Shown: positions 2,286-51,632 of the stretch, piece by piece | Layout: each line of letters opens with the position of its first letter | How positions within the stretch are numbered: position 1 is the first letter of the stretch | Assembly: GCA_038844925.1 (NCBI GenBank) | Contig: JAWBQY010000005.1 | Location: forward strand, 6,325 to 70,324 | From: Sulfolobales archaeon | GTDB taxonomy: Archaea; Thermoproteota; Thermoprotei_A; Sulfolobales; NBVN01 | Direction of reading: 5' to 3' | Length of the DNA stretch: 64,000 nt | Translations under genes and position numbers: made by a program | The notes under the pieces: generated by a model | Told to the model about the DNA's origin: nothing | The model's input: the letters and a program-made list of their open reading frames with translations, nothing else | Databases searched by the model: none

Positions 2286-2846
2286 GTGGGATTAAACCCT
2301 TTAATTAGGATTGAGAATATAGTTGCTACGGTAAGTCTCGAGCAGGAGTTAGATCTAAATTTAATAGGTAGGAACGTGCCGAACATAGAGTACGAACCTG
2401 ACGAGTTTCCAGGTCTTATCATGAGGTTGGAGGGACCTAGACTTACAGCCCTAATATTCAACTCCGGTAAGATGGTTGTCACAGGGGCTAAGAGTACTCA
2501 AGAATTAATTAAGGGGTTTAAAAAGATAATAAAGACCTTAACCAAGTATGGAATAATAATCATCGGTAAACCTAAGATTCAGATCCAAAACATAGTTGCA
2601 TCAGCTAATCTCAACGCCGAGGTCAACTTAGAGAAAGCGGCATACCTTCTTAAAAACACGATGTATGAGCCGGAGCAATTTCCAGGACTAATCCACAGGA
2701 TGGATGACCCTAGAGTAGTACTACTGATCTTTAGTAGTGGGAAAATGGTGATAACCGGAGCTAAGAGTGAGGAGGAGGTCTACAGAGCTGTTAACAACAT
2801 CTACGAGAACTTAAAGGAAATCTCCTGCATTAGGGAGATTACATAA
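2286..2846 (+). CDS. tbp: TATA-box binding protein
   Basis: The protein has the two-fold internal repeat typical of TBP. Repeat 1 reads [16 protein letters not shown]...[14 protein letters not shown]...[15 protein letters not shown]. Repeat 2 reads [10 protein letters not shown]...[14 protein letters not shown]...[15 protein letters not shown]. Confidence 0.95.
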
Positions 2847-2859
2847 TTTTTAATTTATA

Positions 2860-2911
2860 TCAGAGTGAGTTGTGGTCTTCACCGAATCTCTAAGGCTGCC
2901 CACCTCATCAT
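2860..2911 (-). ncRNA. candidate C/D-box sRNA (2'-O-methylation guide)
   Basis: Minus strand 2911->2860 reads ATGATGA(C)-GGTGGGCAGCCT(12)-TAGA(D')-GATTCG(6)-GTGAAGA(C')-CCACAACTCACT(12)-CTGA(D). C and D boxes are perfect, both spacers are exactly 12 nt, and C' matches 6/7. It is intergenic. Confidence 0.45.
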
Positions 2912-3091
2912 CTACTACTTTAATTCCTTTATCAAACGTTTAAAGTTTTTGATGACATCCCCCACATCGGAAAGCCTCATCCCCAAGGGTGGAGGGGGTC
3001 AAATCCTTAAAAGCTCAGTACTTCGTAGAGGGTTTTCCCTGAGGAAGGTTAGCTATAAAATATTAGACTACCTTACTTTAATGGTGTCTTA

Positions 3092-4147
3092 GTGGTTGGT
3101 GGGGTATCCGTAGGTATTATTAGTTGGGGGGCTTACATCCCTAGGTTTAGGATTAAAGTATCAGATATTGCTAGGTTATGGGGTTTTGATCAGCTATTAG
3201 TTAAGTCATTAAATATTGAGGAGAAGGCCGTAGCTAACGTAGATGAGGACGCAACTACTATGGGTTGGTATGCAGCTCGTTCAGCCATTATGAGGGCAGG
3301 TATAAATGTAGGTGAGTTGGGAGCTATTTTCCTTGGAACTGAGTCTAAGCCCTATGCAGTCAAACCAAGCGCAACTATAATAGGTGATGCGTTAGGACTG
3401 CCTAACAAGAAATTAGCATCTGATATGGAGTTTGCTTGCAGAGCTGCTGGTGAGGGGATTAGAATTTCAATAGGTTTAGTGTCCAGCGGTATGATTAAGT
3501 ACTCCTTAGTAGTTGGTTCTGATACTGCTCAAGCTAATCCTGGAGACGTCTTAGAGCTTACCGCAGCTTCAGGGGCTGCTGCCTACATCATAGGTCCTAA
3601 GGATGAAGGTGTTGCATACTTTGAGGGCTCGTATACGTATACGAGTGATACCCCAGACTTTTGGAGGAGGGATGGATCGCCGTACCCACTTCACGGTGAG
3701 GTATTTACTGATGAGCCAGCTTACTTCAACCACATAGTCAATTCTGTAAAAGGCTTGATGAGTGAGCTAGGTCTTAGACCTGAAGACTTCGACTACGCAA
3801 TATTCCACCAACCAAATGGTAGGTTCCCACTAAGAGTGGGGGCTGAGTTAGGATTCCCGAAAGATAAAATACTTCCAGGACTGGTGAACCCTTGGATTGG
3901 TAATACGTATAATGCTTCAGCATTATTAGGCTTAGCTAAGGTTTTAGAGGAGGCTAAACCTGGGCAGAGGATATTACTAGCAACGTTTGGGAGTGGGGCA
4001 GGCAGCGACTCATTCAGCATCGTAACTACTGATAAGTTGTTAACTAGGGTTAACAACGCGTTAAAGGTTACTGACATGCTAAACAATAAGATATACATTG
4101 GATATGATGCTTATGCGAAGTATAGAAAATTGTTGGAGAGGATATGA
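3092..4147 (+). CDS. hydroxymethylglutaryl-CoA synthase (archaeal type)
   Basis: WGAYIPRFRI N-terminus plus GTESKPYAVKP, DMEFACRAAG (catalytic Cys), FHQPNG and GNTYNAS. It is first in the HMGCS/thiolase/DUF35 gene order. Confidence 0.9.
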   Translation: MVGGVSVGIISWGAYIPRFRIKVSDIARLWGFDQLLVKSLNIEEKAVANVDEDATTMGWYAARSAIMRAGINVGELGAIFLGTESKPYAVKPSATIIGDALGLPNKKLASDMEFACRAAGEGIRISIGLVSSGMIKYSLVVGSDTAQANPGDVLELTAASGAAAYIIGPKDEGVAYFEGSYTYTSDTPDFWRRDGSPYPLHGEVFTDEPAYFNHIVNSVKGLMSELGLRPEDFDYAIFHQPNGRFPLRVGAELGFPKDKILPGLVNPWIGNTYNASALLGLAKVLEEAKPGQRILLATFGSGAGSDSFSIVTTDKLLTRVNNALKVTDMLNNKIYIGYDAYAKYRKLLERI

Positions 4148-5289
4148 GCATGGCCTGTAGGAAGGTGTACATCGCATCAGCATCTATGATTAGGGTTAGC
4201 AGGTATTTCACTAAATCATATAAGGAGTTAGCATTCGATGTTGTGGATGAAATCTCTAGGAATTTAAGCAATGACGGTTTAAACAACATAGACTACGTTA
4301 TAGTGTCAAACGTATTTAGCGATTCAATGCTAGATCAACTTGACATCTCCACAATTTTAACTCAGGAGTTAGGCCTCACACCTAAGCCTGCATTAAGAAT
4401 TGAAACCGGTGAGTCAAGCGGTTTAGCAGCTATTGCGCATGCCTACGCCCTAATTAAGTCTGGACTAGCCTCATCAGTCCTCGTCATAGGCGTTGAAAAG
4501 AGTAGTGAATATCCAACCACCGCCATTAATAAACATCTAACTAAATTACTTGACTATGAGGTTGAATCCATATATGATTTCGCGTTAGTTAACGAAGCAG
4601 CCTTCCTCATGAAGGAATATATGGAGAGATACAGGTATAGCAGGGAGGACTTAAGCAGTTGGTCTGTAAAAATGCACAGCAATGCTGTTAGGAACCCCTA
4701 CGCTCAGTTAAAATTCACTGTAACTAAAGAGCAAGTAGTTAATAGTCAAGTACTCTCCGACCCGTTAAGACTGCTTGATTCGTTTCCAATAGGTGATGGA
4801 GCAGCGGCTATACTACTCACAAGTAATGATGGCTTAATATCAAATAGCGACTACGTCGAGATTGAGGCAGTATTCCAGGCAACCGCACTACCGCTTAACT
4901 TAAGAGATAACATACTCGAATTACCGGCTACTAAACTCCTCTTCAGTAGGTTAGTAAAGGAATGTAAAGTAGATATTAATGATGCTGTTTTAGAAATACA
5001 CGACTCATACAGCATACTTGGATACCTAATAATCGAAGAGTTAGGACTGGTTAGGAGGGGTAAAGCTCCTGAAGTCATCAACGACTTAAATAATGTAAAC
5101 TTAAGCGGTGGATTGAAGGCAAGGGGGCACCCTATCGGCGCTACAGGCGTCTACCAAGTCGCAGAAATATTTAAAATTCTGACAGAAGGGTTAGGCGATG
5201 TTAGACGTAACGTTACGTGGGGGTTAGCACACAGTATGTCAGCCTTAGACTTAAATTCAGCAGTAGTAGTTGTTAGGAGGTGTAGGTAG
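4144..5289 (+). CDS. thiolase-family protein (archaeal acetyl-CoA acetyltransferase paralogue) lacking the nucleophilic Cys
   Basis: Thiolase-like motifs VIGVEK, DPLRLLDSFPIGDGAAA, HDSYS and GGLKARGHPIGATGV are present. The active-site loop reads IETGESSGLAA where the paralogue at 46045-47205 has VEAACGSGGAA. There is a 4-nt overlap with the HMGCS gene. Confidence 0.8.
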   Translation: MSMACRKVYIASASMIRVSRYFTKSYKELAFDVVDEISRNLSNDGLNNIDYVIVSNVFSDSMLDQLDISTILTQELGLTPKPALRIETGESSGLAAIAHAYALIKSGLASSVLVIGVEKSSEYPTTAINKHLTKLLDYEVESIYDFALVNEAAFLMKEYMERYRYSREDLSSWSVKMHSNAVRNPYAQLKFTVTKEQVVNSQVLSDPLRLLDSFPIGDGAAAILLTSNDGLISNSDYVEIEAVFQATALPLNLRDNILELPATKLLFSRLVKECKVDINDAVLEIHDSYSILGYLIIEELGLVRRGKAPEVINDLNNVNLSGGLKARGHPIGATGVYQVAEIFKILTEGLGDVRRNVTWGLAHSMSALDLNSAVVVVRRCR

Positions 5290-5705
5290 TGAAGCTATCA
5301 ATACCTAGGTTTTGGAGGAGGAGATTTGACTACTACTCTATTAGGATTACCGAGTGCTTAGAATGTGGTAGGAAGTCATACCCCAGGAGACCTATATGCC
5401 CGTACTGCAAGTCACGTAATGTTAGGACTACGAACTCAGTAGGACTCGGTGAAGTAGTAAGCTATACCATCAGCTATTACAGAATTGAGGGAAGTGAGGA
5501 AAACCTACCGAAGATCATAGCTTTAATAAGATTGGACGAGGGACCCATAGTCATTGGTGAGGTAGTAGATGTAAGCCAATCTGAAGTGCGTCAAGGCTTA
5601 AGAGTTGAGGCAGTTTTAAGGAGGTTGAAGTCTGAAGACCCCAGCGGGCTGATATACTACGGACTTAAGTTCAGACCACTAATAACCAACTCAGCCGTCG
5701 GCTAG
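5289..5705 (+). CDS. DUF35 OB-fold / zinc-ribbon protein (thiolase-HMGCS complex subunit)
   Basis: The zinc ribbon CLECG...CPYCKS is followed by an OB-fold-like C-terminus. Its start overlaps the thiolase stop (TAGTGA). Confidence 0.85.
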   Translation: MKLSIPRFWRRRFDYYSIRITECLECGRKSYPRRPICPYCKSRNVRTTNSVGLGEVVSYTISYYRIEGSEENLPKIIALIRLDEGPIVIGEVVDVSQSEVRQGLRVEAVLRRLKSEDPSGLIYYGLKFRPLITNSAVG

Positions 5706-8175: not shown

Positions 8176-9387
8176 TTGGGCATTGATGATATGTTTAAGA
8201 GAATTGTTGAGAGGAGTTTAACGTCTAAGATATTTAATGATAGGGAAGTTTTAAGGCCGGATTACATACCTAATGAATTGCCGCATAGGGATGAGCAGAT
8301 AAGTAAGATAAGTTCTATACTAGCTCCTATCTTCAGAGGTGAGAGGCCAAGTAATATATTCATCTACGGGTTGACTGGGACCGGGAAAACAGCAGTTGTT
8401 AAATACGTCTTAATGAAGTTTGAAGAATATACTAATAAGTTTGGGAGGTCTTTTAAGTACAGCTATATTAACTGCAGGTATGATGACACTACGTATAGGG
8501 TCTTAGCTAGGTTGGCCGACTCTGTAGGTATTAAGATACCGTTTACGGGGCTTTCAACTTCAGAGGTTTTCAGAAGGATTGTGTTAGCCTTAGATGGTAT
8601 GGGGGTACCGTTGGTTGTGATCTTAGATGAGGTTGACTCGCTTGTGAAGAAATGCGGTGATGAACTACTTTACAGGTTGACTAGAGTTAACGAAGAGCTT
8701 AAGAAAGGGAAGGTAACAATAGTTGGTATAACTAACGATGTTAACTTTATTGAGAGGTTGGACCCCAGGGTTAAGTCAAGCCTCGGCGAGGAGGAGGTTA
8801 TCTTCCCACCATATGACGCACTCCAGCTCGAAGACATACTCTCACGTAGGGCTGTTAAAGCCTTCAGACCCGAGGTACTTGATGAAGGCGTTATTTCACT
8901 ATGCGCGTCGATAGCTGCTAAAGAACATGGAGATGCTAGGAGGGCTTTAGACCTGTTAAGAGTTGCTGGTGAGATAGCTGAGAGGAAGGGGGATGGCAAG
9001 GTTACTAAGGAGCATGTACTAATGGCTAGGACGGAAATAGAGAGAGATAGAGTTGCTGAAGTTATTAAGACCTTACCACTACATAGTAAGTTAGTACTAC
9101 TCTCACTAACCATAGACGGCGGTGATAGTAGAACTACTGGAGACGTCTACAACATATATAGAGAATTATGTAGGAATTTAAGCGTAGACCCAGTCACGCA
9201 GAGGAGGGTTAGCGACATAATTAGTGAGTTAGACATGCTTGGAATAATAAACGCTAAAGTGGTTAATAGGGGTAGGTATGGGAAGACGAGGATTATAAGC
9301 CTCAATGTAGACTTAAATACCTTAATTAAGGTGTTGAAGGAGGAAGGAAGGCTTGAAAACATTATTAAGAACTTTCGGAGTAGATGA
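8176..9387 (+). CDS. cdc6: Orc1/Cdc6 replication initiator
   Basis: The LRPDYIPNELPHRDEQ N-terminal signature is present, along with Walker A GLTGTGKT and Walker B VVILDEVD. AAA+ lid motifs (GDARRALDLLR) and a C-terminal winged helix are also present. Confidence 0.95.
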   Translation: MGIDDMFKRIVERSLTSKIFNDREVLRPDYIPNELPHRDEQISKISSILAPIFRGERPSNIFIYGLTGTGKTAVVKYVLMKFEEYTNKFGRSFKYSYINCRYDDTTYRVLARLADSVGIKIPFTGLSTSEVFRRIVLALDGMGVPLVVILDEVDSLVKKCGDELLYRLTRVNEELKKGKVTIVGITNDVNFIERLDPRVKSSLGEEEVIFPPYDALQLEDILSRRAVKAFRPEVLDEGVISLCASIAAKEHGDARRALDLLRVAGEIAERKGDGKVTKEHVLMARTEIERDRVAEVIKTLPLHSKLVLLSLTIDGGDSRTTGDVYNIYRELCRNLSVDPVTQRRVSDIISELDMLGIINAKVVNRGRYGKTRIISLNVDLNTLIKVLKEEGRLENIIKNFRSR

Positions 9388-44827: not shown

Positions 44828-45652
44828 ATGTTTGCTATGGATTTAAGCCTTATGATGATAGCGCTCTCATGCATGGGTGATGAATTAATTTACCTACTCA
44901 TAACCTCCATACTAGTAATAATGCGTAGGGATTTAGGTATTAAGATATTGACCACATTACTAATCACTATGTACTTAAATCAAACACTTAAGTTCTGGTT
45001 TAATATTCCTAGGCCTGCAGACCACTTAACCGCTCTACATTCCCTGCCACCACTTATTAAGTTATTAGTTGGTGGTGAGGGGCCTTCATTCCCAAGCGGT
45101 CATGCTCAAATATCATCTACTTTCTGGACTTCACTAACTTTAAACGTCCCCAGTAAGACTACTGCTACAACTATGGTAGTACTACCAATACTAATTGCTT
45201 ATTCTAGAATTGCTCTAGGGGTGCATACTCCCTTAGATGTTGTTGTAGCACTAATCATAGGTTATTCAATACCGTTAATAACAAACCTTACAGATGTAAC
45301 GCTTAAGAAATGCGGAAGTAGGTACGAGGTCCCCATAAAATTATCCCTACTTACATCTCTACTTATATTCTCAGTAGTGGTAGGCTACCCTAAACTAGCG
45401 TTGATTGCTGGGTTAATGGTTGCTGGAGTGATAGCCCATAAACTTACATTAGATAGTGGTAGGAGTTTTACTAAACGTCTCGGGACTTCAGCGCTTTCAT
45501 TAGTTACGTTGGCTTCGGGATATGCCCTACTGGACTTCATAGGGGGTTTAGATAATGCTGTTGTGGAGTTCGCAGTAGCGTTAGTTATAGGTATTACTGC
45601 CTACATAGTAATACCAGTCAAACTCAACGTCTTCAAGATTAGATGGCGTTAA
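44828..45652 (+). CDS. PAP2-family lipid phosphate phosphatase
   Basis: The three PAP2 motifs are KFWFNIPRP, PSGH and SRIALGVHTPLDV. It is a multi-TM protein. Confidence 0.8.
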   Translation: MFAMDLSLMMIALSCMGDELIYLLITSILVIMRRDLGIKILTTLLITMYLNQTLKFWFNIPRPADHLTALHSLPPLIKLLVGGEGPSFPSGHAQISSTFWTSLTLNVPSKTTATTMVVLPILIAYSRIALGVHTPLDVVVALIIGYSIPLITNLTDVTLKKCGSRYEVPIKLSLLTSLLIFSVVVGYPKLALIAGLMVAGVIAHKLTLDSGRSFTKRLGTSALSLVTLASGYALLDFIGGLDNAVVEFAVALVIGITAYIVIPVKLNVFKIRWR

Positions 45653-46038
45653 CTTCCCTTAGGTTTGAATTTAACTATGTAGGGTACGTAGCCATCTAAG
45701 GTCATTGCCGACCTCCTAATAGTGGCTTCTACCTCCATACCTATGTAGACCTCTTCAGGCTTTACGTTAGTTAGCTGTGTTAGCACTTTACCATTACTTG
45801 TTTCAATAAGCGCTATAACTAAAGGTGACATGTTTTCAAAACCCTCTATAGGTACGTTAACAACCGTATATGAGAGAATCCTCCCTGAGTTGCCTAAAGC
45901 TGTTTTCTCAACATTCCTTGAGGAGCACTTAGGGCATGCAGCCTTAGGTGGGTAGCACGTGTATCCGCAGTCCAAACATCTAATACCTACTAGGTCTAGG
46001 AGGACGTCCTTTAACCTCCATAATCTCTGAAACGACAT
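45649..46038 (-). CDS. DUF35 OB-fold / zinc-ribbon protein (second copy)
   Basis: A CLDCG...CPKCSS zinc ribbon plus an OB-like C-terminus. It is last in the second triad. Confidence 0.8.
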   Translation of the reverse strand: MSFQRLWRLKDVLLDLVGIRCLDCGYTCYPPKAACPKCSSRNVEKTALGNSGRILSYTVVNVPIEGFENMSPLVIALIETSNGKVLTQLTNVKPEEVYIGMEVEATIRRSAMTLDGYVPYIVKFKPKGS

Positions 46039-46044
46039 ACACTA

Positions 46045-47205
46045 CTACCTCCTTAGTATTATGGTAGTTATATTTGAGCCTACACCGCCGATATTCTGAG
46101 TTAAGCCGACCTCACCGCCAACTTTAACTCCTGGGAAATCCCCTCTTAACTGCATAACGACCTCACATACTTGGTAAACTCCTGTAGCTCCTACTGGATG
46201 ACCTCTAGACTTCAGACCTCCTGACGGGTTTACAGATGGTTTATCACCAGGTTTAAACCTACCCTCAGCAACTAATTTAGCCCCCATGCCCTTAGGTGCA
46301 AAGCCTACGTCTTCAAGTGTTATCACACCGTTTATTGAGTAAGCATCGTGAAGTTCTGCCACATCAACATCCTTAGGGGATAGCTTAGCCATTTTAAATG
46401 CTCTTTCAGCTGATAACCTCGACGCTAAGAATGAATCTAACTCAAATCTAGATGAGATGTCAGTACTGTCTAATGCGTTGCCTATTCCAGCAATTAAAAC
46501 CGGTGTGTCGTTGTACTTCTTTGCGACATCCTCAGAAGCTAGAATTACTGCAGCAGCCCCATCACTCATCGGGCATGAGTCTAGCAGTCTTATAGGGTCA
46601 GCTATTATAGGTGATTTAACGACGTCTTCCGCGGTAATCTTCATTTTCAAATGTGCGTATGGATTGTAGTAACCGTTTTCATGCATTAATATAGGCCATG
46701 CAGACATATCGTCCCTCCCCACATTATACTTATTCATATAGTACCGCATTATCAGCGCGTTAAGACCTGAGAAACTAATTCCGTAAGGTATTTCGAAGTC
46801 AGCGTCTGCCGCGTAGGCAAGTCCGCGTGCTACTTCAGGTGTAGTCCTCTCACTTAATTTCTCGACCCCTACTACAGCTACAACGTTAGCTAATCCTGAG
46901 GATATTAATGCGTATCCAGCAACCAATGCCGCACCGCCTGAGCCGCAGGCAGCCTCTACCTTAAACCCTGAAGTACCTCTTAAACCGCAGTAATCTGCTA
47001 CGAGTGATGCTAAGTTCTCCTGCTCTGCTTGACTGCTTAACATATTACTTACTACTATGAATTCCGGTACAACGTTACTGGCATCATCTATAGCTTTGAA
47101 GAGTGCTTCACCAGCTAAGTCTCTTAGAGGGCGTTCGTAGAACCTACCAACGTTACTCATACCTGAACCAACTACGAATACCTTCCTAAACACTATAGCC
47201 ACCAC
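46045..47205 (-). CDS. thiolase (archaeal acetyl-CoA acetyltransferase type), catalytic Cys present
   Basis: VEAACGSGGAA (nucleophile Cys), VGVEK, DSCPMSDGAAA, HDAYS and GGLKSRGHPVGATGV are present. Confidence 0.85.
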   Translation of the reverse strand: MVAIVFRKVFVVGSGMSNVGRFYERPLRDLAGEALFKAIDDASNVVPEFIVVSNMLSSQAEQENLASLVADYCGLRGTSGFKVEAACGSGGAALVAGYALISSGLANVVAVVGVEKLSERTTPEVARGLAYAADADFEIPYGISFSGLNALIMRYYMNKYNVGRDDMSAWPILMHENGYYNPYAHLKMKITAEDVVKSPIIADPIRLLDSCPMSDGAAAVILASEDVAKKYNDTPVLIAGIGNALDSTDISSRFELDSFLASRLSAERAFKMAKLSPKDVDVAELHDAYSINGVITLEDVGFAPKGMGAKLVAEGRFKPGDKPSVNPSGGLKSRGHPVGATGVYQVCEVVMQLRGDFPGVKVGGEVGLTQNIGGVGSNITTIILRR

Positions 47206-47207
47206 AC

Positions 47208-48119
47208 TTATTGTAACGTAATTACTGAAGTGTTAGTTAAAAGCTTATCTAAATAGTTAACACATCCACGCATTGGACGTAAGTCCTCAACAACTTTAAG
47301 AATTAACGAAGTCGCACAAGTGAAGTTATCATCTAAGTCTAAAAGCAGTATGTGATCGCCTGGTGATGAAATCTCGAGAGACCTAACTAAAGTGAGTAGT
47401 GTATGTGATGTACCGAAGTAACCTATAGTTTTAACATATTTGGAGGGCTCTAATGAAGCATCGCTAATACCTACAGACTTTAAAATCTTAGAACAATATC
47501 TTAAGTCCTTTAGATTCGTAGCTACGTACTTTATTTCCTGAGGCCTAACCCCAGCCCTCTCTAATAAATTCTTCAAGAACTTAGATAGCCTGCCGAGGTA
47601 GAGGTCTGCATGGAAGTCATTTCTAGCAACCTTACTAGGCAGTAGAGGCGGTGAGTTTATTAATGACTCACTTGAAAGTACTTCTACATATCCTTTAGAC
47701 TTACTGAGAACCATTGAAACAGCTGCAGCTGCCTCACTACAGTCCGAAGAAACTACTAGGACATCACCCTCCTCAACTATCTCCTCAGCCAAACTGATTA
47801 GATGGTATAAATCGCTTATATCGTATTTCTTAATATCATTTAGCTTAAGTAGGTCGGCTAGTAATGCTGACTTAACACCGATTGTCCTATCACTTGACAA
47901 GTAAACTAATGCTTTAAAATTACTATAGCCGTTATACCTTAGCACTTGACATGATTCATAACTCATCGTTATTAAATCTTCGTCAGGACCTAATACTGGA
48001 GTTAAACTATTACCATTACGCTTCCTGTACCTTGGTATGTAAGCACACCATGCCGATATGTAGAATCTCATAAACCTTCTCTTAATACTTAGAGATGGGG
48101 TTTTTATGGTTTTCGTCAA
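47208..48119 (-). CDS. HMG-CoA synthase-like protein, apparently catalytically degenerate
   Basis: AWCAYIPRYR aligns with the HMGCS N-terminus. However GTES becomes SSDR, EFACRAAG becomes SDLYHLIS (no Cys), FHQPN becomes YVATN, and GNTYNAS becomes GYFGTSH. It occupies the same gene position as the HMGCS in the first triad. Confidence 0.6.
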   Translation of the reverse strand: MTKTIKTPSLSIKRRFMRFYISAWCAYIPRYRKRNGNSLTPVLGPDEDLITMSYESCQVLRYNGYSNFKALVYLSSDRTIGVKSALLADLLKLNDIKKYDISDLYHLISLAEEIVEEGDVLVVSSDCSEAAAAVSMVLSKSKGYVEVLSSESLINSPPLLPSKVARNDFHADLYLGRLSKFLKNLLERAGVRPQEIKYVATNLKDLRYCSKILKSVGISDASLEPSKYVKTIGYFGTSHTLLTLVRSLEISSPGDHILLLDLDDNFTCATSLILKVVEDLRPMRGCVNYLDKLLTNTSVITLQ

Positions 48120-48197
48120 AAGACTACATATGTTTTAGACATTAATCTAACGCATTTACGTAAATATTACCTTATAAAGTATGTACGTCTAATTTCT

Positions 48198-50597
48198 ATG
48201 GTGGATACCATATATAAGCGTACGTTATTACTTATAATCATTGTTGTTTCACTTACTACACTACTATTAGAGCCATTAATAGTTGAGGGAATGGGTAGTG
48301 GTAAGCTTGATGATGGGGTAAAAAGTAGTTTGCTAGTAAACGGTTTTAGCGAGTTCTTAGTAATTAGTAATGACTTAAGTAAGACTTACAGTCTCATAAG
48401 CTCTAACGCTATCAGAGTGTTTAATGAGTTTGGAATGATCTTAGCTGTAGGTGATTTAACAGTCATCAATAAGTTGATTAGGGAACCCTCAGTTGTTAGG
48501 ATAGTACCTAACTTTAAAGTTAGAATTGAAATAACCAGTAATTTTAAGGTCCTCACACTAGGGGATAGTGAGTTAGAGGAAGCTCTCTACAGTTGGGGGA
48601 GGTCTAGAGTTGGTGGGAAGGTTGTTAGTAAGCTCTACAATATTAGTGGGTCTGATGTCATAGTAGCTGTGTTAGATACTGGTATCTCATTAGATCATGA
48701 GGAGCTGAAGGGGAAGTTAATTACTATTAACCCACTAGATAGAACATATCCGGGTGGTTGGATAGAATTTAATCGTAAGGGGGTGCCTGTATGTTCCACA
48801 CCGAGGGATACGCACTTCCATGGCACGTGGGTCAGTTCTATAATAGCAGGTGAGTTCATAGGTATAGCCCCAAATGTAAAACTCATGCATGGCTTAGTAC
48901 TACACGGTGGTGAGGGAACTGCTGCCCAACTACTGGCAGGTCTTGAATGGGTGTTACAGCCTTACACATGTACGGGAGTTAAGACGCAGATAAAACCTAA
49001 TATAGTCTCCTTAAGCCTAGGTGCTTCAGGTAATTACAGTGATGTCTTCTTAAAGCCTATCTCAAGGCTGATTCAGGAGGATATAATAGTTATCGCTGCC
49101 ATAGGGAATGACGGGCCTGGAACCACTTCAAATCCGGGGAATATTTGGGGTGTGATAGGTGTTGGAGCCACCAATAGAGATGATGAAGTTGCGGACTTTA
49201 GCTCTAGTGAAGTTGTTGAATGGCCCTCACCACCTGATGAGTGGCCGTTTAGGGGTACCTATCCTAAGAACTACGTTAAACCCGACTTCACATCACCAGG
49301 AGTTCTAATACCTGGAGCGTACGTAGTAAGTGGTTACTACGTAATAGCCTCAGGTACTAGTGCGTCAACACCTATTGTAAGTGGTGTTACTGCACTAGTT
49401 TTAGAAGCGTTTAAGACGGTTGGAAGGAAGCCTACAATTAATGACGTATATGAAATACTTAATAAAAGTGCGGATAAAGTATGCGATTTAAGTAGGTGTG
49501 GGTGGGGTATAGTTAATGCTGTTAAGGCGGTTTCTCAAGCCTTAGGTAGGGATTTAAATGAAGTTGAGGTCAAAGTAAACGCTACGGATGTCCAAGTCTT
49601 CGATACCATTTTATTAACATCTAAACATAATTTGAATTACTTCTTAGATGACCTTAAATTAGGGTCGGGAAGTGAAGTAGTAGTCCGCGTCCCAATTAGT
49701 GATATGGGTTACCATACAATCCATGCCGTTAGTGAAGGAGAGTACGGACGTGTGAGGATATTTATTAAACCTAAAGCAGTTATTAGAAGTAAGACAGTTA
49801 CGAGAGGGGAGTACTTAGAATTAACATTACTTGGATTTCCAGGGGCTTCAGATGTTCTCATATACCTAGGCAGTAACCTACTTACATATAAGCCACTAAA
49901 TTTACTAGGCTATGAGTCTCTGAAACTCTCACTACCTTACATTAGTTCGGGAAGTCATGAGTTATTAATAATGAATTTTGAGGGCCCGATAATTATTAAG
50001 GATGAAGTATATGTACGTGAAGAGCTTCCAGGTAAGACTAGCTTTACATTAATAGCTTTATCACCACCCTCACAACATACTAACTCAACTGTAGATGTCT
50101 ACATAATATCCTTAATTAACGGAACAGTTAGGGAGCCACGTAAGCTCTACTATCAATTCTTAAGTAGTCAGCCAATGGTGGTTTCAGACATGAGTAGAAT
50201 TGCTGAAGGTATTTACAGGCTCTCATATACGGCGACTTCTTCAGGTGTCTACGTAATTTTATTCAGAGGTGAGGTTGAGGTTGATGGATACGTCATTAAC
50301 GCTACAGCTGTAGCGGTAACTAACATAACACTACCAGATGTTGACTTAAGATCAGTAATTACTAATACGACACTTAAGATTCAAAACCTAACATCTAATC
50401 TTAGTGCCCTAGATTTTGAAGTGCAAATGCTTAGGTCTGAATTAGAAAACTTGAATTCCACTCTTAATCAATTAAATTACACTATATCTACAACCTTAAA
50501 TGAGGTTCTTAAGCTAAGGACTATGATAATTGTGGTAATTCTAGTATTATTCCTTACTAACTTAATTGTAATTAAGCATTTAAAAAGACATGATTAA
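48198..50597 (+). CDS. S8 subtilisin-like serine protease with long C-terminal extension, coiled-coil stalk and C-terminal TM anchor
   Basis: The N-terminus has a signal/anchor. The catalytic triad motifs are VAVLDTGI (D), HFHGTWVSS (H) and SGTSASTPIVSG (S). A sequon-rich heptad region (NLTSNLSALDFEVQMLRSELENLNSTLNQLN) precedes the TM helix. Confidence 0.85.
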   Translation: MVDTIYKRTLLLIIIVVSLTTLLLEPLIVEGMGSGKLDDGVKSSLLVNGFSEFLVISNDLSKTYSLISSNAIRVFNEFGMILAVGDLTVINKLIREPSVVRIVPNFKVRIEITSNFKVLTLGDSELEEALYSWGRSRVGGKVVSKLYNISGSDVIVAVLDTGISLDHEELKGKLITINPLDRTYPGGWIEFNRKGVPVCSTPRDTHFHGTWVSSIIAGEFIGIAPNVKLMHGLVLHGGEGTAAQLLAGLEWVLQPYTCTGVKTQIKPNIVSLSLGASGNYSDVFLKPISRLIQEDIIVIAAIGNDGPGTTSNPGNIWGVIGVGATNRDDEVADFSSSEVVEWPSPPDEWPFRGTYPKNYVKPDFTSPGVLIPGAYVVSGYYVIASGTSASTPIVSGVTALVLEAFKTVGRKPTINDVYEILNKSADKVCDLSRCGWGIVNAVKAVSQALGRDLNEVEVKVNATDVQVFDTILLTSKHNLNYFLDDLKLGSGSEVVVRVPISDMGYHTIHAVSEGEYGRVRIFIKPKAVIRSKTVTRGEYLELTLLGFPGASDVLIYLGSNLLTYKPLNLLGYESLKLSLPYISSGSHELLIMNFEGPIIIKDEVYVREELPGKTSFTLIALSPPSQHTNSTVDVYIISLINGTVREPRKLYYQFLSSQPMVVSDMSRIAEGIYRLSYTATSSGVYVILFRGEVEVDGYVINATAVAVTNITLPDVDLRSVITNTTLKIQNLTSNLSALDFEVQMLRSELENLNSTLNQLNYTISTTLNEVLKLRTMIIVVILVLFLTNLIVIKHLKRHD

Positions 50598-50624: not shown

Positions 50625-51632
50625 ATGAAGATCTCTAAAGACATGCTGCCGGTAGTGTTAATAATCATTACCATATATGCGGCTCTCTTATACATAGCTT
50701 TAAATTTAAATTTAGATGACGTATCCCCAATGCTATTTACATCTAATTTGAATTACTTAATACCTACAGTATTCTTCCGCGTATTTGCACTCCTACTTCA
50801 TTCTTTCTCGTGGTACTTCCTAATTAAGGTTTTACACAGTAATGTATCGGCCGTTAGGGTCTTAGGCATTACGTTAGCAGCTATACTTACAGAAGTAATC
50901 TTACCGATTGGCGGTGTTACAGAAGTTGCTAAAGTTTTACTAGCTTCACAGTTTTTGAACATAGCTCCCGACGCAGTAATATCAGCTCTCCTACTTCATA
51001 GGCTACTGCTTAGCGTGATTACTGCTGTAGTTACGATTATAGCTATAAACATTATTGAGGTCCCCCTAAGTATTTCATTAACTATTCTATCATCTATAGT
51101 GGGATTATTAGTTTTAAATGCTGTAATGCTTCTCCTACCGTCTTCTCAAATGTTTAAGAAAGTTGTCGGAAAGTTCGTAGTGAGGTTTAACATCTCAATT
51201 CAAGACCCTTCAGCTAAGTATAGAGAGTCTATGAGGAAGGTGCTTAGTAGTGGGAGGCTAGCACTCATACTTACGTCACTTACTATACTAGCAGAGAAAT
51301 TTAGCAACGGAGTATATGGGATATACTTATGTAGGTTAATGTCAACTGATATAAATATCTTTACATCTTTAATAGTCTTCGACTCAATATACGTTATCAT
51401 ATGGTTACTACCAGTAGTAACTCCTGGAAATATAGGTGTTTTCGAGACAGTACAGATAATGATATTTAAGCTTCTAGGAACGTCGCTTAAATCTGCTACC
51501 TTAATAGCTCTACTTAATAGAGCTATCACGTTGATTACTGAGCTACCTTTAATGCTACTCTCAACTACTTATCTAGGAATACGTGCTAGGCAGTTGATAA
51601 GGACTTTAAGTTCCTCCCGCTCTAAAGGATGA
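50625..51632 (+). CDS. polytopic membrane protein (flippase-like / UPF0104-like, tentative)
   Basis: About 8 TM helices. The family assignment is by overall resemblance only. Confidence 0.45.
   Translation: MKISKDMLPVVLIIITIYAALLYIALNLNLDDVSPMLFTSNLNYLIPTVFFRVFALLLHSFSWYFLIKVLHSNVSAVRVLGITLAAILTEVILPIGGVTEVAKVLLASQFLNIAPDAVISALLLHRLLLSVITAVVTIIAINIIEVPLSISLTILSSIVGLLVLNAVMLLLPSSQMFKKVVGKFVVRFNISIQDPSAKYRESMRKVLSSGRLALILTSLTILAEKFSNGVYGIYLCRLMSTDINIFTSLIVFDSIYVIIWLLPVVTPGNIGVFETVQIMIFKLLGTSLKSATLIALLNRAITLITELPLMLLSTTYLGIRARQLIRTLSSSRSKG

Follow-up and report, generated by a model that had tools for sequence, protein, structure and literature searches.

A 64-kb window of genomic DNA from a Sulfolobales archaeon (contig JAWBQY010000005.1, positions 6,325 to 70,324) was found to carry two gene triads, each encoding a protein related to HMG-CoA synthase (HMGCS), a thiolase and a DUF35 protein, and the question that it raises is why a second triad is kept whose HMGCS-like member appears catalytically dead. 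The term window denotes this whole 64-kb stretch, and the functional account given below is inferred from sequence throughout. The probable answer is that triad 2 (H2, T2 and D2) specifies a DUF35-bridged thiolase complex in which H2 is non-catalytic, that the two triads arose by whole-operon duplication followed by complementary loss, and that T2 feeds the HMGCS of triad 1 (H1, T1 and D1).

Triad 2 is located on the minus strand, where a reading made from the sequence alone (the sequence-only reading) had reported a second triad with the same gene order and the opposite defect; its three open reading frames (ORFs) were all recovered. Based on homology, a fold model and substitution rates, H2 (47208-48071) was assigned as an HMGCS-derived pseudoenzyme subunit, T2 (46045-47205) as an archaeal DUF35-dependent acetoacetyl-CoA thiolase (ACAT) with intact catalytic residues, and D2 (45649-46038) as a DUF35 scaffold protein with a Zn ribbon and an OB fold. 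The gaps of 2 nt between H2 and T2 and of 6 nt between T2 and D2 are a typical operon layout, and the locus is tripartite in the sense that three adjacent, co-oriented genes represent the HMGS, ACAT and DUF35 families once each. No further paralogues of the triad genes were found in the 64-kb window, and both triads are set among housekeeping genes. The HMGCS-like protein had been described as 303 amino acid residues long (47208-48119); that ORF exists and extends mechanically to a TTG at 48119, but because seven of seven homologues aligned to it begin at its Met17, the true start is almost certainly the ATG at 48071, which gives 287 residues. A Shine-Dalgarno-like GAAGGT (48079-48074) lies 2 nt 5' of this ATG. 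The divergent intergenic region upstream of H2 (48072-48197, minus strand) contains a putative promoter and ribosome-binding site, with A-rich boxes at 48107-48101 and TTTATAA at 48178-48172 that were read by eye and carry no statistical support.

H2 scored far below the cut-offs of the archaeal HMGCS models (39.3 bits against 244 for PRK04262/NF003274, and 19.5 against 353 for TIGR00748), on which H1 reached 524 and 455 bits, respectively. No Pfam domain was found in H2 above threshold, a match to ACP_syn_III_C being sub-threshold only. Pairwise BLAST aligned H2 with H1 at 22 % identity (E 2e-9), and when the profile of the H2 family was compared with five true HMGCS by hhalign, a probability of 99.1 % was obtained (E 1.2e-18, 280 columns). 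Judged from these alignments, the homology of H2 to HMGCS spans the whole protein. Previous mutational work has shown that the E-C-H-N tetrad (E82/C114/H238/N270 in the archaeal complex) is essential for HMG-CoA formation (PMC12960953). The earlier claim that H2 has lost the Glu, Cys, His and Asn was borne out by hhalign, which mapped E84, C116, H239 and N271 of H1 to S75 (with D77 nearby), H106, N202 and Y234 of H2, respectively, in the numbering of the 303-residue ORF. The residue facing the catalytic Cys varied with the aligner (I, D or H) and was never Cys. Also missing from H2 are some 17 residues close to the N-terminus, the helix after the catalytic Cys, the NPGDVLELTAA loop and the C-terminal tail. 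As far as these residues tell, H2 cannot carry out HMGCS chemistry.

The loss of the tetrad has not been accompanied by loss of the gene. The H2 sequence is 100 % identical to a MAG protein labelled 'Sulfolobales archaeon'. A word-seeded search returned eight close relatives (46-75 % identity), all annotated as 'hypothetical', and the alignment of this close family has a mean column identity of 74 %, its invariant polar residues including C25, H106, H170, C209, H239 and C286. The ratio of nonsynonymous to synonymous substitution rates (dN/dS, Nei-Gojobori) of H2 was 0.07-0.22 overall; most genome pairs had a saturated dS (>1 or not defined), which leaves loci L005 and L006 as the sole trustworthy pair, and this pair gave 0.10 for H2, 0.10 for T2 and 0.15 for D2. 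The dN of H2 was 2-3.5 times that of T2. None of the genomes examined had a disrupted H2 reading frame. H2 is under purifying selection and is a maintained gene, not a pseudogene. The absence of a Pfam domain above threshold and the 'hypothetical' label on all database copies are what a decaying pseudogene or a spurious ORF would display, but such a reading is effectively refuted by the intact frame, the low dN/dS, the operon-tight spacing, a confident fold prediction and synteny kept over deep divergence.

If H2 is maintained, it might have acquired an active site of its own or a ligand-binding or regulatory function, for which His106, Cys209 and His239 are the candidate residues. The high column identity of the close family, its invariant polar residues and a dN/dS of about 0.1 would fit such a function. 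When the H2 profile was searched with HMMER exhaustively against 1.84 billion representatives, 16 matches were obtained, among them short proteins of 228-267 residues (P0011-13 and P0023) that also lack the tetrad. The alignment of the broad family (15 sequences) contains no invariant column, only a Tyr-Glu pair and one Lys being nearly so, which argues against a conserved alternative active site. Moreover, the candidate residues are unconserved in the positional orthologues of other lineages, the HMGCS loops that line the pocket are deleted, and the length drifts from 287 to 246 residues among homologues, with an unrecognizable positional ORF of 212 residues. A new function of H2 was accordingly considered improbable; its conservation pattern appears to fit a scaffold more than a catalyst. 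Among metagenomic HMGS-like proteins, P0009 (471 residues) and P0018 (448 residues) carry a DUF35 domain at the C-terminus, as PfHMGS-DUF35 does; together with P0014 and P0015 (339-345 residues) they have lost the tetrad partly or completely, P0014 retaining the Glu without the C, H and N. These four proteins suggest a spectrum of HMGS inactivation states.

The structure of H2 was predicted with AlphaFold2 on a 24-sequence alignment that contained true HMGCS sequences, an earlier seven-sequence alignment having given an unusable model (pLDDT 42). The model (pLDDT 89, pTM 0.90) was compared with PDB structures by Foldseek, and the best fold match was PhlA (5m3k_A, E 7e-18, query TM-score (TMq) 0.80), the HMGCS subunit 6esq_J giving a TMq of 0.82; the Foldseek probability was 1.0 with PhlA, the 6esq HMGCS, MucA (9vbo) and FabH. 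H2 is thus predicted to have the thiolase-superfamily HMGS/KAS-III fold of HMGCS and PhlA. PhlA, the 6ESQ HMGCS and MucA are all HMGS-type subunits of DUF35-bridged complexes. Of the three explanations offered by the sequence-only reading, the retention of inactive subunits as scaffolds is the one best supported, by the purifying selection on H2, the lack of an invariant residue in the broad family and this fold.

T2, in contrast to H2, passed the cut-off of its family model (430 bits against 420 for PRK06064, NF004720), and it scored 366 bits against the solved ACAT 7yvy_A and 247 bits against 6esq_A, the thiolase of the Methanothermococcus complex. The canonical nucleophile that had been pointed out in EAACGSGG is Cys87, and His286 (in HDAY) and His336 (in GHP) complete the set; the Cys, the HDx(F/Y) His and the GHP His are kept in all 79 members of the T2 clade. 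T2 is 57 % identical to the thiolase of the Hyperthermus mevalonate operon. In a midpoint-rooted neighbor-joining tree, T2 and its orthologues fell inside a compact canonical Cys clade, and T1 fell among long-branched non-Cys sequences. The Cys clade includes the thiolases of Hyperthermus butylicus (L008) and of locus L016, which lie outside the clade of the window and where a true HMGCS (351-354 residues) precedes the Cys-thiolase and HMG-CoA reductase (HMGR) follows beyond the DUF35 gene. By these sequence criteria T2 is a canonical archaeal acetoacetyl-CoA thiolase with an intact catalytic set. Its HDxF motif reads HDAY in 69 of the 79 T2-clade thiolases and HDAF in 49 of 50 canonical Cys-thiolases, and the T1 clade has the same F-to-Y tendency (HDSY in 54, HDSF in 28); this shift may represent co-adaptation in lineages with the split system. 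D2 matched zf-ChsH2 (PF12172, E 1.5e-8) and OB_ChsH2_C (PF01796, E 1.8e-14), both above the gathering thresholds, and the CxxC...CxxC motif of an N-terminal rubredoxin-like Zn ribbon is readable in it. It is 76-90 % identical across six syntenic loci from metagenome-assembled genomes (MAGs), and it is closer to its own Zestosphaera orthologue (54 %) than to the triad-1 DUF35 protein of that lineage (32 %).

The match of the H2 model to PhlA raises the possibility that triad 2 is a neofunctionalized C-acyltransferase of the Friedel-Crafts type with a non-CoA acceptor, like PhlACB (PpATase, 5M3K/5MG5) and MucABC (SmaATase, 9VBO), which share with triad 2 the order HMGS-like protein, thiolase and DUF35 protein, whose HMGS-like subunit is tetrad-less and non-catalytic, and whose catalysis resides in the thiolase. 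MucB alone is catalytically inactive. Besides gene order, composition and the best fold match, marginal hits of the H2 profile to PhlA-type chains among PDB sequences (the best, E 0.009-0.03) point the same way. PhlC and MucB, however, have lost the HDxF His, and their pockets are remodelled for small-molecule acceptors (PMC12960953), whereas T2 has the canonical thiolase set, with the His present in HDAY and with GHP, and is 57 % identical to a canonical ACAT. In addition, the fold match to the 6ESQ HMGCS is equally good, and no polyketide synthase, nonribosomal peptide synthetase or other secondary-metabolite context was seen in the window. This possibility was judged very improbable. Since T2 also nests with the mevalonate-operon thiolases, the more general proposal that triad 2 performs a different condensing chemistry is disfavored for this subunit.

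Triad 1 lies on the plus strand and consists of H1 (3092-4147), T1 (4144-5289) and D1 (5289-5705), the last being 38 % identical to D2 (E 2e-25). H1 is a bona fide archaeal HMGCS, as shown by its PRK04262 score, by 394 bits against 6esq_I and by intact GTES, EFAC, FHQPN and GNTYN motifs. T1 is its thiolase-fold partner, and in alignments of T1 (ETGESSGL) to T2 (EAACGSGG) and to 7yvy_A a Glu stands opposite their nucleophile Cys; T1 remained below the PRK06064 cut-off (270 against 420 bits). Among the thiolase sequences collected, the nucleophile position is Glu in 84 of 93 non-Cys homologues (motif G-E-[SA]-S-G), and GHP is retained in 91 of these 93 and HDx(Y/F) in nearly all. Genes of the Glu type were located at 4001-5146 in L007 and 4001-5137 in L013. 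In Acidilobus saccharovorans the genes for HMGCS, Glu-thiolase, DUF35 protein and HMGR stand in a row, and in Zestosphaera the Glu-type thiolase also adjoins HMGCS, there with the HDxF His lost too. So conserved a Cys-to-Glu change suggests a function for the Glu, not simple decay, and since the Glu is strictly conserved in T1, the inactivity of T1 counts as an inference from residue loss. A solved structure of a Cys-less relative is available in PDB 4yzo_A, a 'putative acyl-CoA acyltransferase' of 373 residues with Ser at the nucleophile position (VDNTSGSGG), which scored 179 bits against T1 and 217 bits against T2.

The reciprocal pattern proposed by the sequence-only reading stood in its first part, namely that at the level of sequence each triad has one catalytic and one apparently inactive subunit; the word degeneration misfits T1, in view of the conserved Glu. 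The pattern also extends beyond this genome, to related MAGs and Zestosphaera. T1-type and T2-type genes occur on the same contig in at least three MAGs of this group and in more distant lineages (contigs of 80.5, 146, 206, 349, 498 and 757 kb), same-contig status being based on matched contig sizes and read directly for the window only. For Zestosphaera the two triads come from separate MAG assemblies, so that their shared 757-kb contig rests on a size match. The split occurs in a clade of Thermoprotei whose MAG records bear the label Sulfolobales archaeon or Desulfurococcaceae archaeon and to which Zestosphaera belongs.

As to whether the two triads are ancient paralogues, all six proteins were found to have their own orthologues in Zestosphaera, each being closer to its orthologue than to its paralogue, and the neighbor-joining tree separates T1 from T2. 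Identities between window and Zestosphaera were 64 % for H1 and 64 % for T2, 58 % for D1 and 54 % for D2, and 42 % for T1 and 26 % for H2; the live enzymes are slow, the DUF35 proteins intermediate and the 'dead' partners fastest. The single Hyperthermus DUF35 protein is as far from D1 (42 %) as from D2 (41 %). On these comparisons, the simplest and most likely history is that the whole triad was duplicated ahead of the split of these lineages and that complementary loss came afterwards.

The arrangement H2-T2-D2 was observed in six further MAGs (L001-L006) and also at L009-L012, L014 and L015, that is, at 12 other loci in all. Because the family evolves too fast to be traced by sequence, positional orthologues of H2 were sought via T2, whose orthologues form an identity gradient from 100 % to about 60 %; the layout traced was a Pfam-less ORF, then a Cys-thiolase, then a DUF35 gene. 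The neighbors PheRS and LPG_synthase_TM are common to the window and to many of these loci. The upstream ORF has 257 residues in L010 (Zestosphaera, T2 identity 64 %), 252 in L011 (T2 identity 69 %), 254 in L012 (65 %), 246 in L014 (69 %) and 264 in L009, where the contig ends within the thiolase gene and no T2 identity was obtained. In L015 (62 %) it has 212 residues. Five of these six ORFs are demonstrably H2 homologues, that of L011, missed by BLAST and by the close-family profile, being recovered with the hidden Markov model of the broader family (E 2.7e-7). The ORF of L015 has no detectable homology to H2 (E 6.4) and was counted as a positional analogue only. In an Ignisphaera MAG (L017), a Cys-thiolase/DUF35 pair (3001-4550) has no HMGS-like upstream gene, a radical-SAM gene in divergent orientation being only 159 bp away (2842-3000). 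Erosion of the pseudo-HMGCS may have reached its end-point here, or the thiolase/DUF35 pair may be an independent one. The dead synthase can be laid out as a graded series, from 351 residues through 287 and 246-264 to the unrecognizable 212-residue ORF and finally to no upstream gene.

These observations can be joined in the following model. An ancestral HMGCS-thiolase-DUF35 operon would have been duplicated whole in a Thermoprotei clade, after which triad 1 would have retained HMGCS catalysis and exchanged the thiolase Cys for Glu, and triad 2 would have retained thiolase catalysis and lost the E-C-H-N tetrad. H2, T2 and D2 would assemble as a DUF35-bridged acetoacetyl-CoA thiolase complex with T2 as the sole catalytic subunit, and H2 would be kept as a structural partner, either as an assembly platform or as the part that makes the CoA-binding chamber between HMGS and ACAT complete. 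In solved complexes DUF35 joins HMGS-type and thiolase subunits, and the interfacial CoA chamber persists when the HMGS unit is inactive. For a Sulfolobus ketothiolase (KT), both solubility and activity required co-expression with the DUF35 partner (bioRxiv 10.1101/2024.07.05.601840). Because T1 is without the nucleophile and T2 is an orthologue of mevalonate-operon thiolases, T2 is the best candidate for the acetoacetyl-CoA source of H1; it most probably would make acetoacetyl-CoA, which H1 would turn into HMG-CoA for the mevalonate pathway. A split of the two reactions across two complexes, another of the explanations put forward earlier, is consistent with these sequences.

Several points weigh against this model. 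The thiolase tree is without support values, and the true HMGCS sequences in the AlphaFold2 alignment bias the H2 model toward that fold. H2 seems dispensable in some relatives, being absent from L017 and unrecognizable in L015, so that a structural need for it would not be universal. Reactions placed in separate complexes forfeit the intra-complex channelling that is thought to drive the endergonic thiolase step, so that, for T2 to serve the mevalonate pathway, the intermediate would have to diffuse freely or mixed assemblies would have to form. Thiolysis only, and no acetoacetyl-CoA synthesis, was observed in vitro with PfACAT/HMGS-DUF35 (PMC12960953), and other thiolases may exist beyond the 64-kb window. 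Lastly, genes for an acyl-CoA dehydrogenase and for electron transfer flavoprotein (ETF) alpha/beta stand directly upstream of the pseudo-HMGCS/thiolase/DUF35 cluster of L012 (1-2709); they hint at fatty-acid metabolism, and this is the sole such context, seen at this locus.

The last two observations bear on an alternative in which triad 2 acts outside isoprenoid synthesis, as a KT/DUF35 module of fatty-acid synthesis or of beta-oxidation or thiolysis with a vestigial H2, the acetoacetyl-CoA coming from another thiolase or from an unrecognized activity of T1. S. acidocaldarius has seven KT/DUF35 pairs, one of which scaffolds a fatty-acid synthase complex (bioRxiv 10.1101/2024.07.05.601840), and the cleavage of acetoacetyl-CoA by the Pseudomonas enzyme, the L012 neighbors and the shrinking and final disappearance of H2 in related lineages would all be accommodated. 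T2, however, nests with the mevalonate-operon Cys-thiolases and not with distant KT paralogues, its conservation equals that of the true HMGCS (64 % to Zestosphaera for each), its housekeeping synteny (PheRS, LPG_synthase_TM) is kept across lineages, and no beta-oxidation, reductase or dehydratase genes were seen nearby in the window. The HMGCS-adjacent thiolase is also without a nucleophile, so that another ACAT is needed. A role in fatty-acid metabolism or thiolysis was held to be unlikely, although well above the other alternatives.

A broader idea is that throughout a clade of Thermoprotei the archaeal channelling complex was subfunctionalized into a pair of paralogous complexes, one enzyme being live and the other dead in each, so that entry into the mevalonate pathway proceeds without channelling, via mixed assemblies or by Glu chemistry; this idea is a tentative one that we consider possible but short of an even chance. 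In mixed assemblies, the dead subunits would act as adaptors that place the active T2 next to the active H1; in the variant with new chemistry, the strictly conserved Glu of T1 would itself act in mevalonate entry.

Compared with the complex of Methanothermococcus thermolithotrophicus (6ESQ/6ET9), triad 2 consists of the same three protein families, D2 has the same two domains, and a 6ESQ-type archaeal complex is the evident evolutionary ancestor. Both enzymes of that complex are reportedly active, and a CoA site fused between the two serves channelling. The HMGCS-like subunit of triad 2, unlike that of 6ESQ, is without catalytic residues, which makes channelling within the triad impossible. 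Complexes of this kind are described as near-universally conserved in archaea for mevalonate synthesis (PMC12960953).

The combination of a tetrad-less HMGS, an intact ACAT and a DUF35 protein was published in January 2026 for bacteria, in a survey of 1,030 bacterial loci that also characterized PfACAT/HMGS-DUF35 (Liao et al., Nat Commun 2026, PMC12960953). Triad 2 resembles PfACAT/HMGS-DUF35 of Pseudomonas fluorescens, read by its authors as an inactive HMGS with an active thiolase (PMC12960953), in that the HMGS unit is without the tetrad, the ACAT has the Cys, an HDxF-type His and GHx, a DUF35 domain is present and there is no secondary-metabolite gene context. It differs in that the bacterial HMGS-like unit is fused to DUF35, whereas in triad 2 the two are encoded separately and the T2 gene stands in between, in that H2 (287 residues) is far more reduced than the bacterial HMGS-like units, and in that triad 2 coexists with a reciprocal paralogous triad bearing an active HMGCS. 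The Saci_1121/1120 pair, the core of the S. acidocaldarius fatty-acid synthase, was likened to T2 by description; it is likewise a crenarchaeal DUF35-dependent ketothiolase outside the HMGCS operon with DUF35 as the hub, but an HMGS-like gene is missing from it, and its recruited partners are a reductase and a dehydratase (bioRxiv 10.1101/2024.07.05.601840). The same preprint on archaeal fatty-acid synthase describes multiple KT/DUF35 pairs and no HMGS-like pseudo-subunit.

The sequence-only reading knew of no description of such a pattern. This no longer holds for the single arrangement of inactive HMGS, intact ACAT and DUF35, given the bacterial study, but for the archaeal reciprocal pairing it appears to stand: no prior account of an archaeal pseudo-HMGCS triad, of a Cys-to-Glu thiolase beside HMGCS or of the reciprocal pair was found in a literature search of incomplete coverage. 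The ingredients are known singly, and the clade-wide reciprocal split of an archaeal channelling complex appears to be undescribed.

The fused-CoA-site complex is the textbook account of how archaea drive the unfavorable first step toward isoprenoid lipids, and a lineage with the two active sites in different paralogous triads would offer a natural test of how much channelling is needed. It would likewise illustrate cleanly how reciprocal pseudoenzymes form once a multi-subunit enzyme has been duplicated, and it would extend to archaea the stage of 'inactive HMGS unit + active ACAT' that was proposed in 2026 as the first step of repurposing in bacteria. For annotation, the 'hypothetical proteins' of about 250-290 residues encoded 5' of Thermoprotei thiolase genes could be named as HMGCS-derived pseudo-subunits, and in pathway reconstructions an HMGCS-adjacent thiolase should not be presumed to be an active ACAT.

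Several minor observations were made on the surroundings of the two triads. A gene for a PAP2-superfamily membrane phosphatase (44828-45652, plus strand) converges on D2, the ends of the two genes sharing 4 nt, a possible link to lipid phosphates, and this neighbor is not conserved at the other loci inspected. On the other side, a gene for a subtilase of 799 residues (Peptidase_S8, 48198-50597, plus strand) separates H2 from the LPG_synthase_TM gene (50625-51632, plus strand). In other lineages the LPG_synthase_TM gene is found upstream of the pseudo-HMGCS gene in divergent orientation, directly adjoining it in L009-L011 and with one gene of 410 residues intervening in L015, and the subtilase gene of the window looks like a lineage-specific insertion. 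A gene for a TATA-binding protein (2286-2846, plus strand) stands directly 5' of triad 1, and an Orc1/Cdc6 gene (8176-9387, plus strand) is located a few kb downstream; the cumulative GC skew turns near 10-20 kb of the window, and a replication origin may be nearby.

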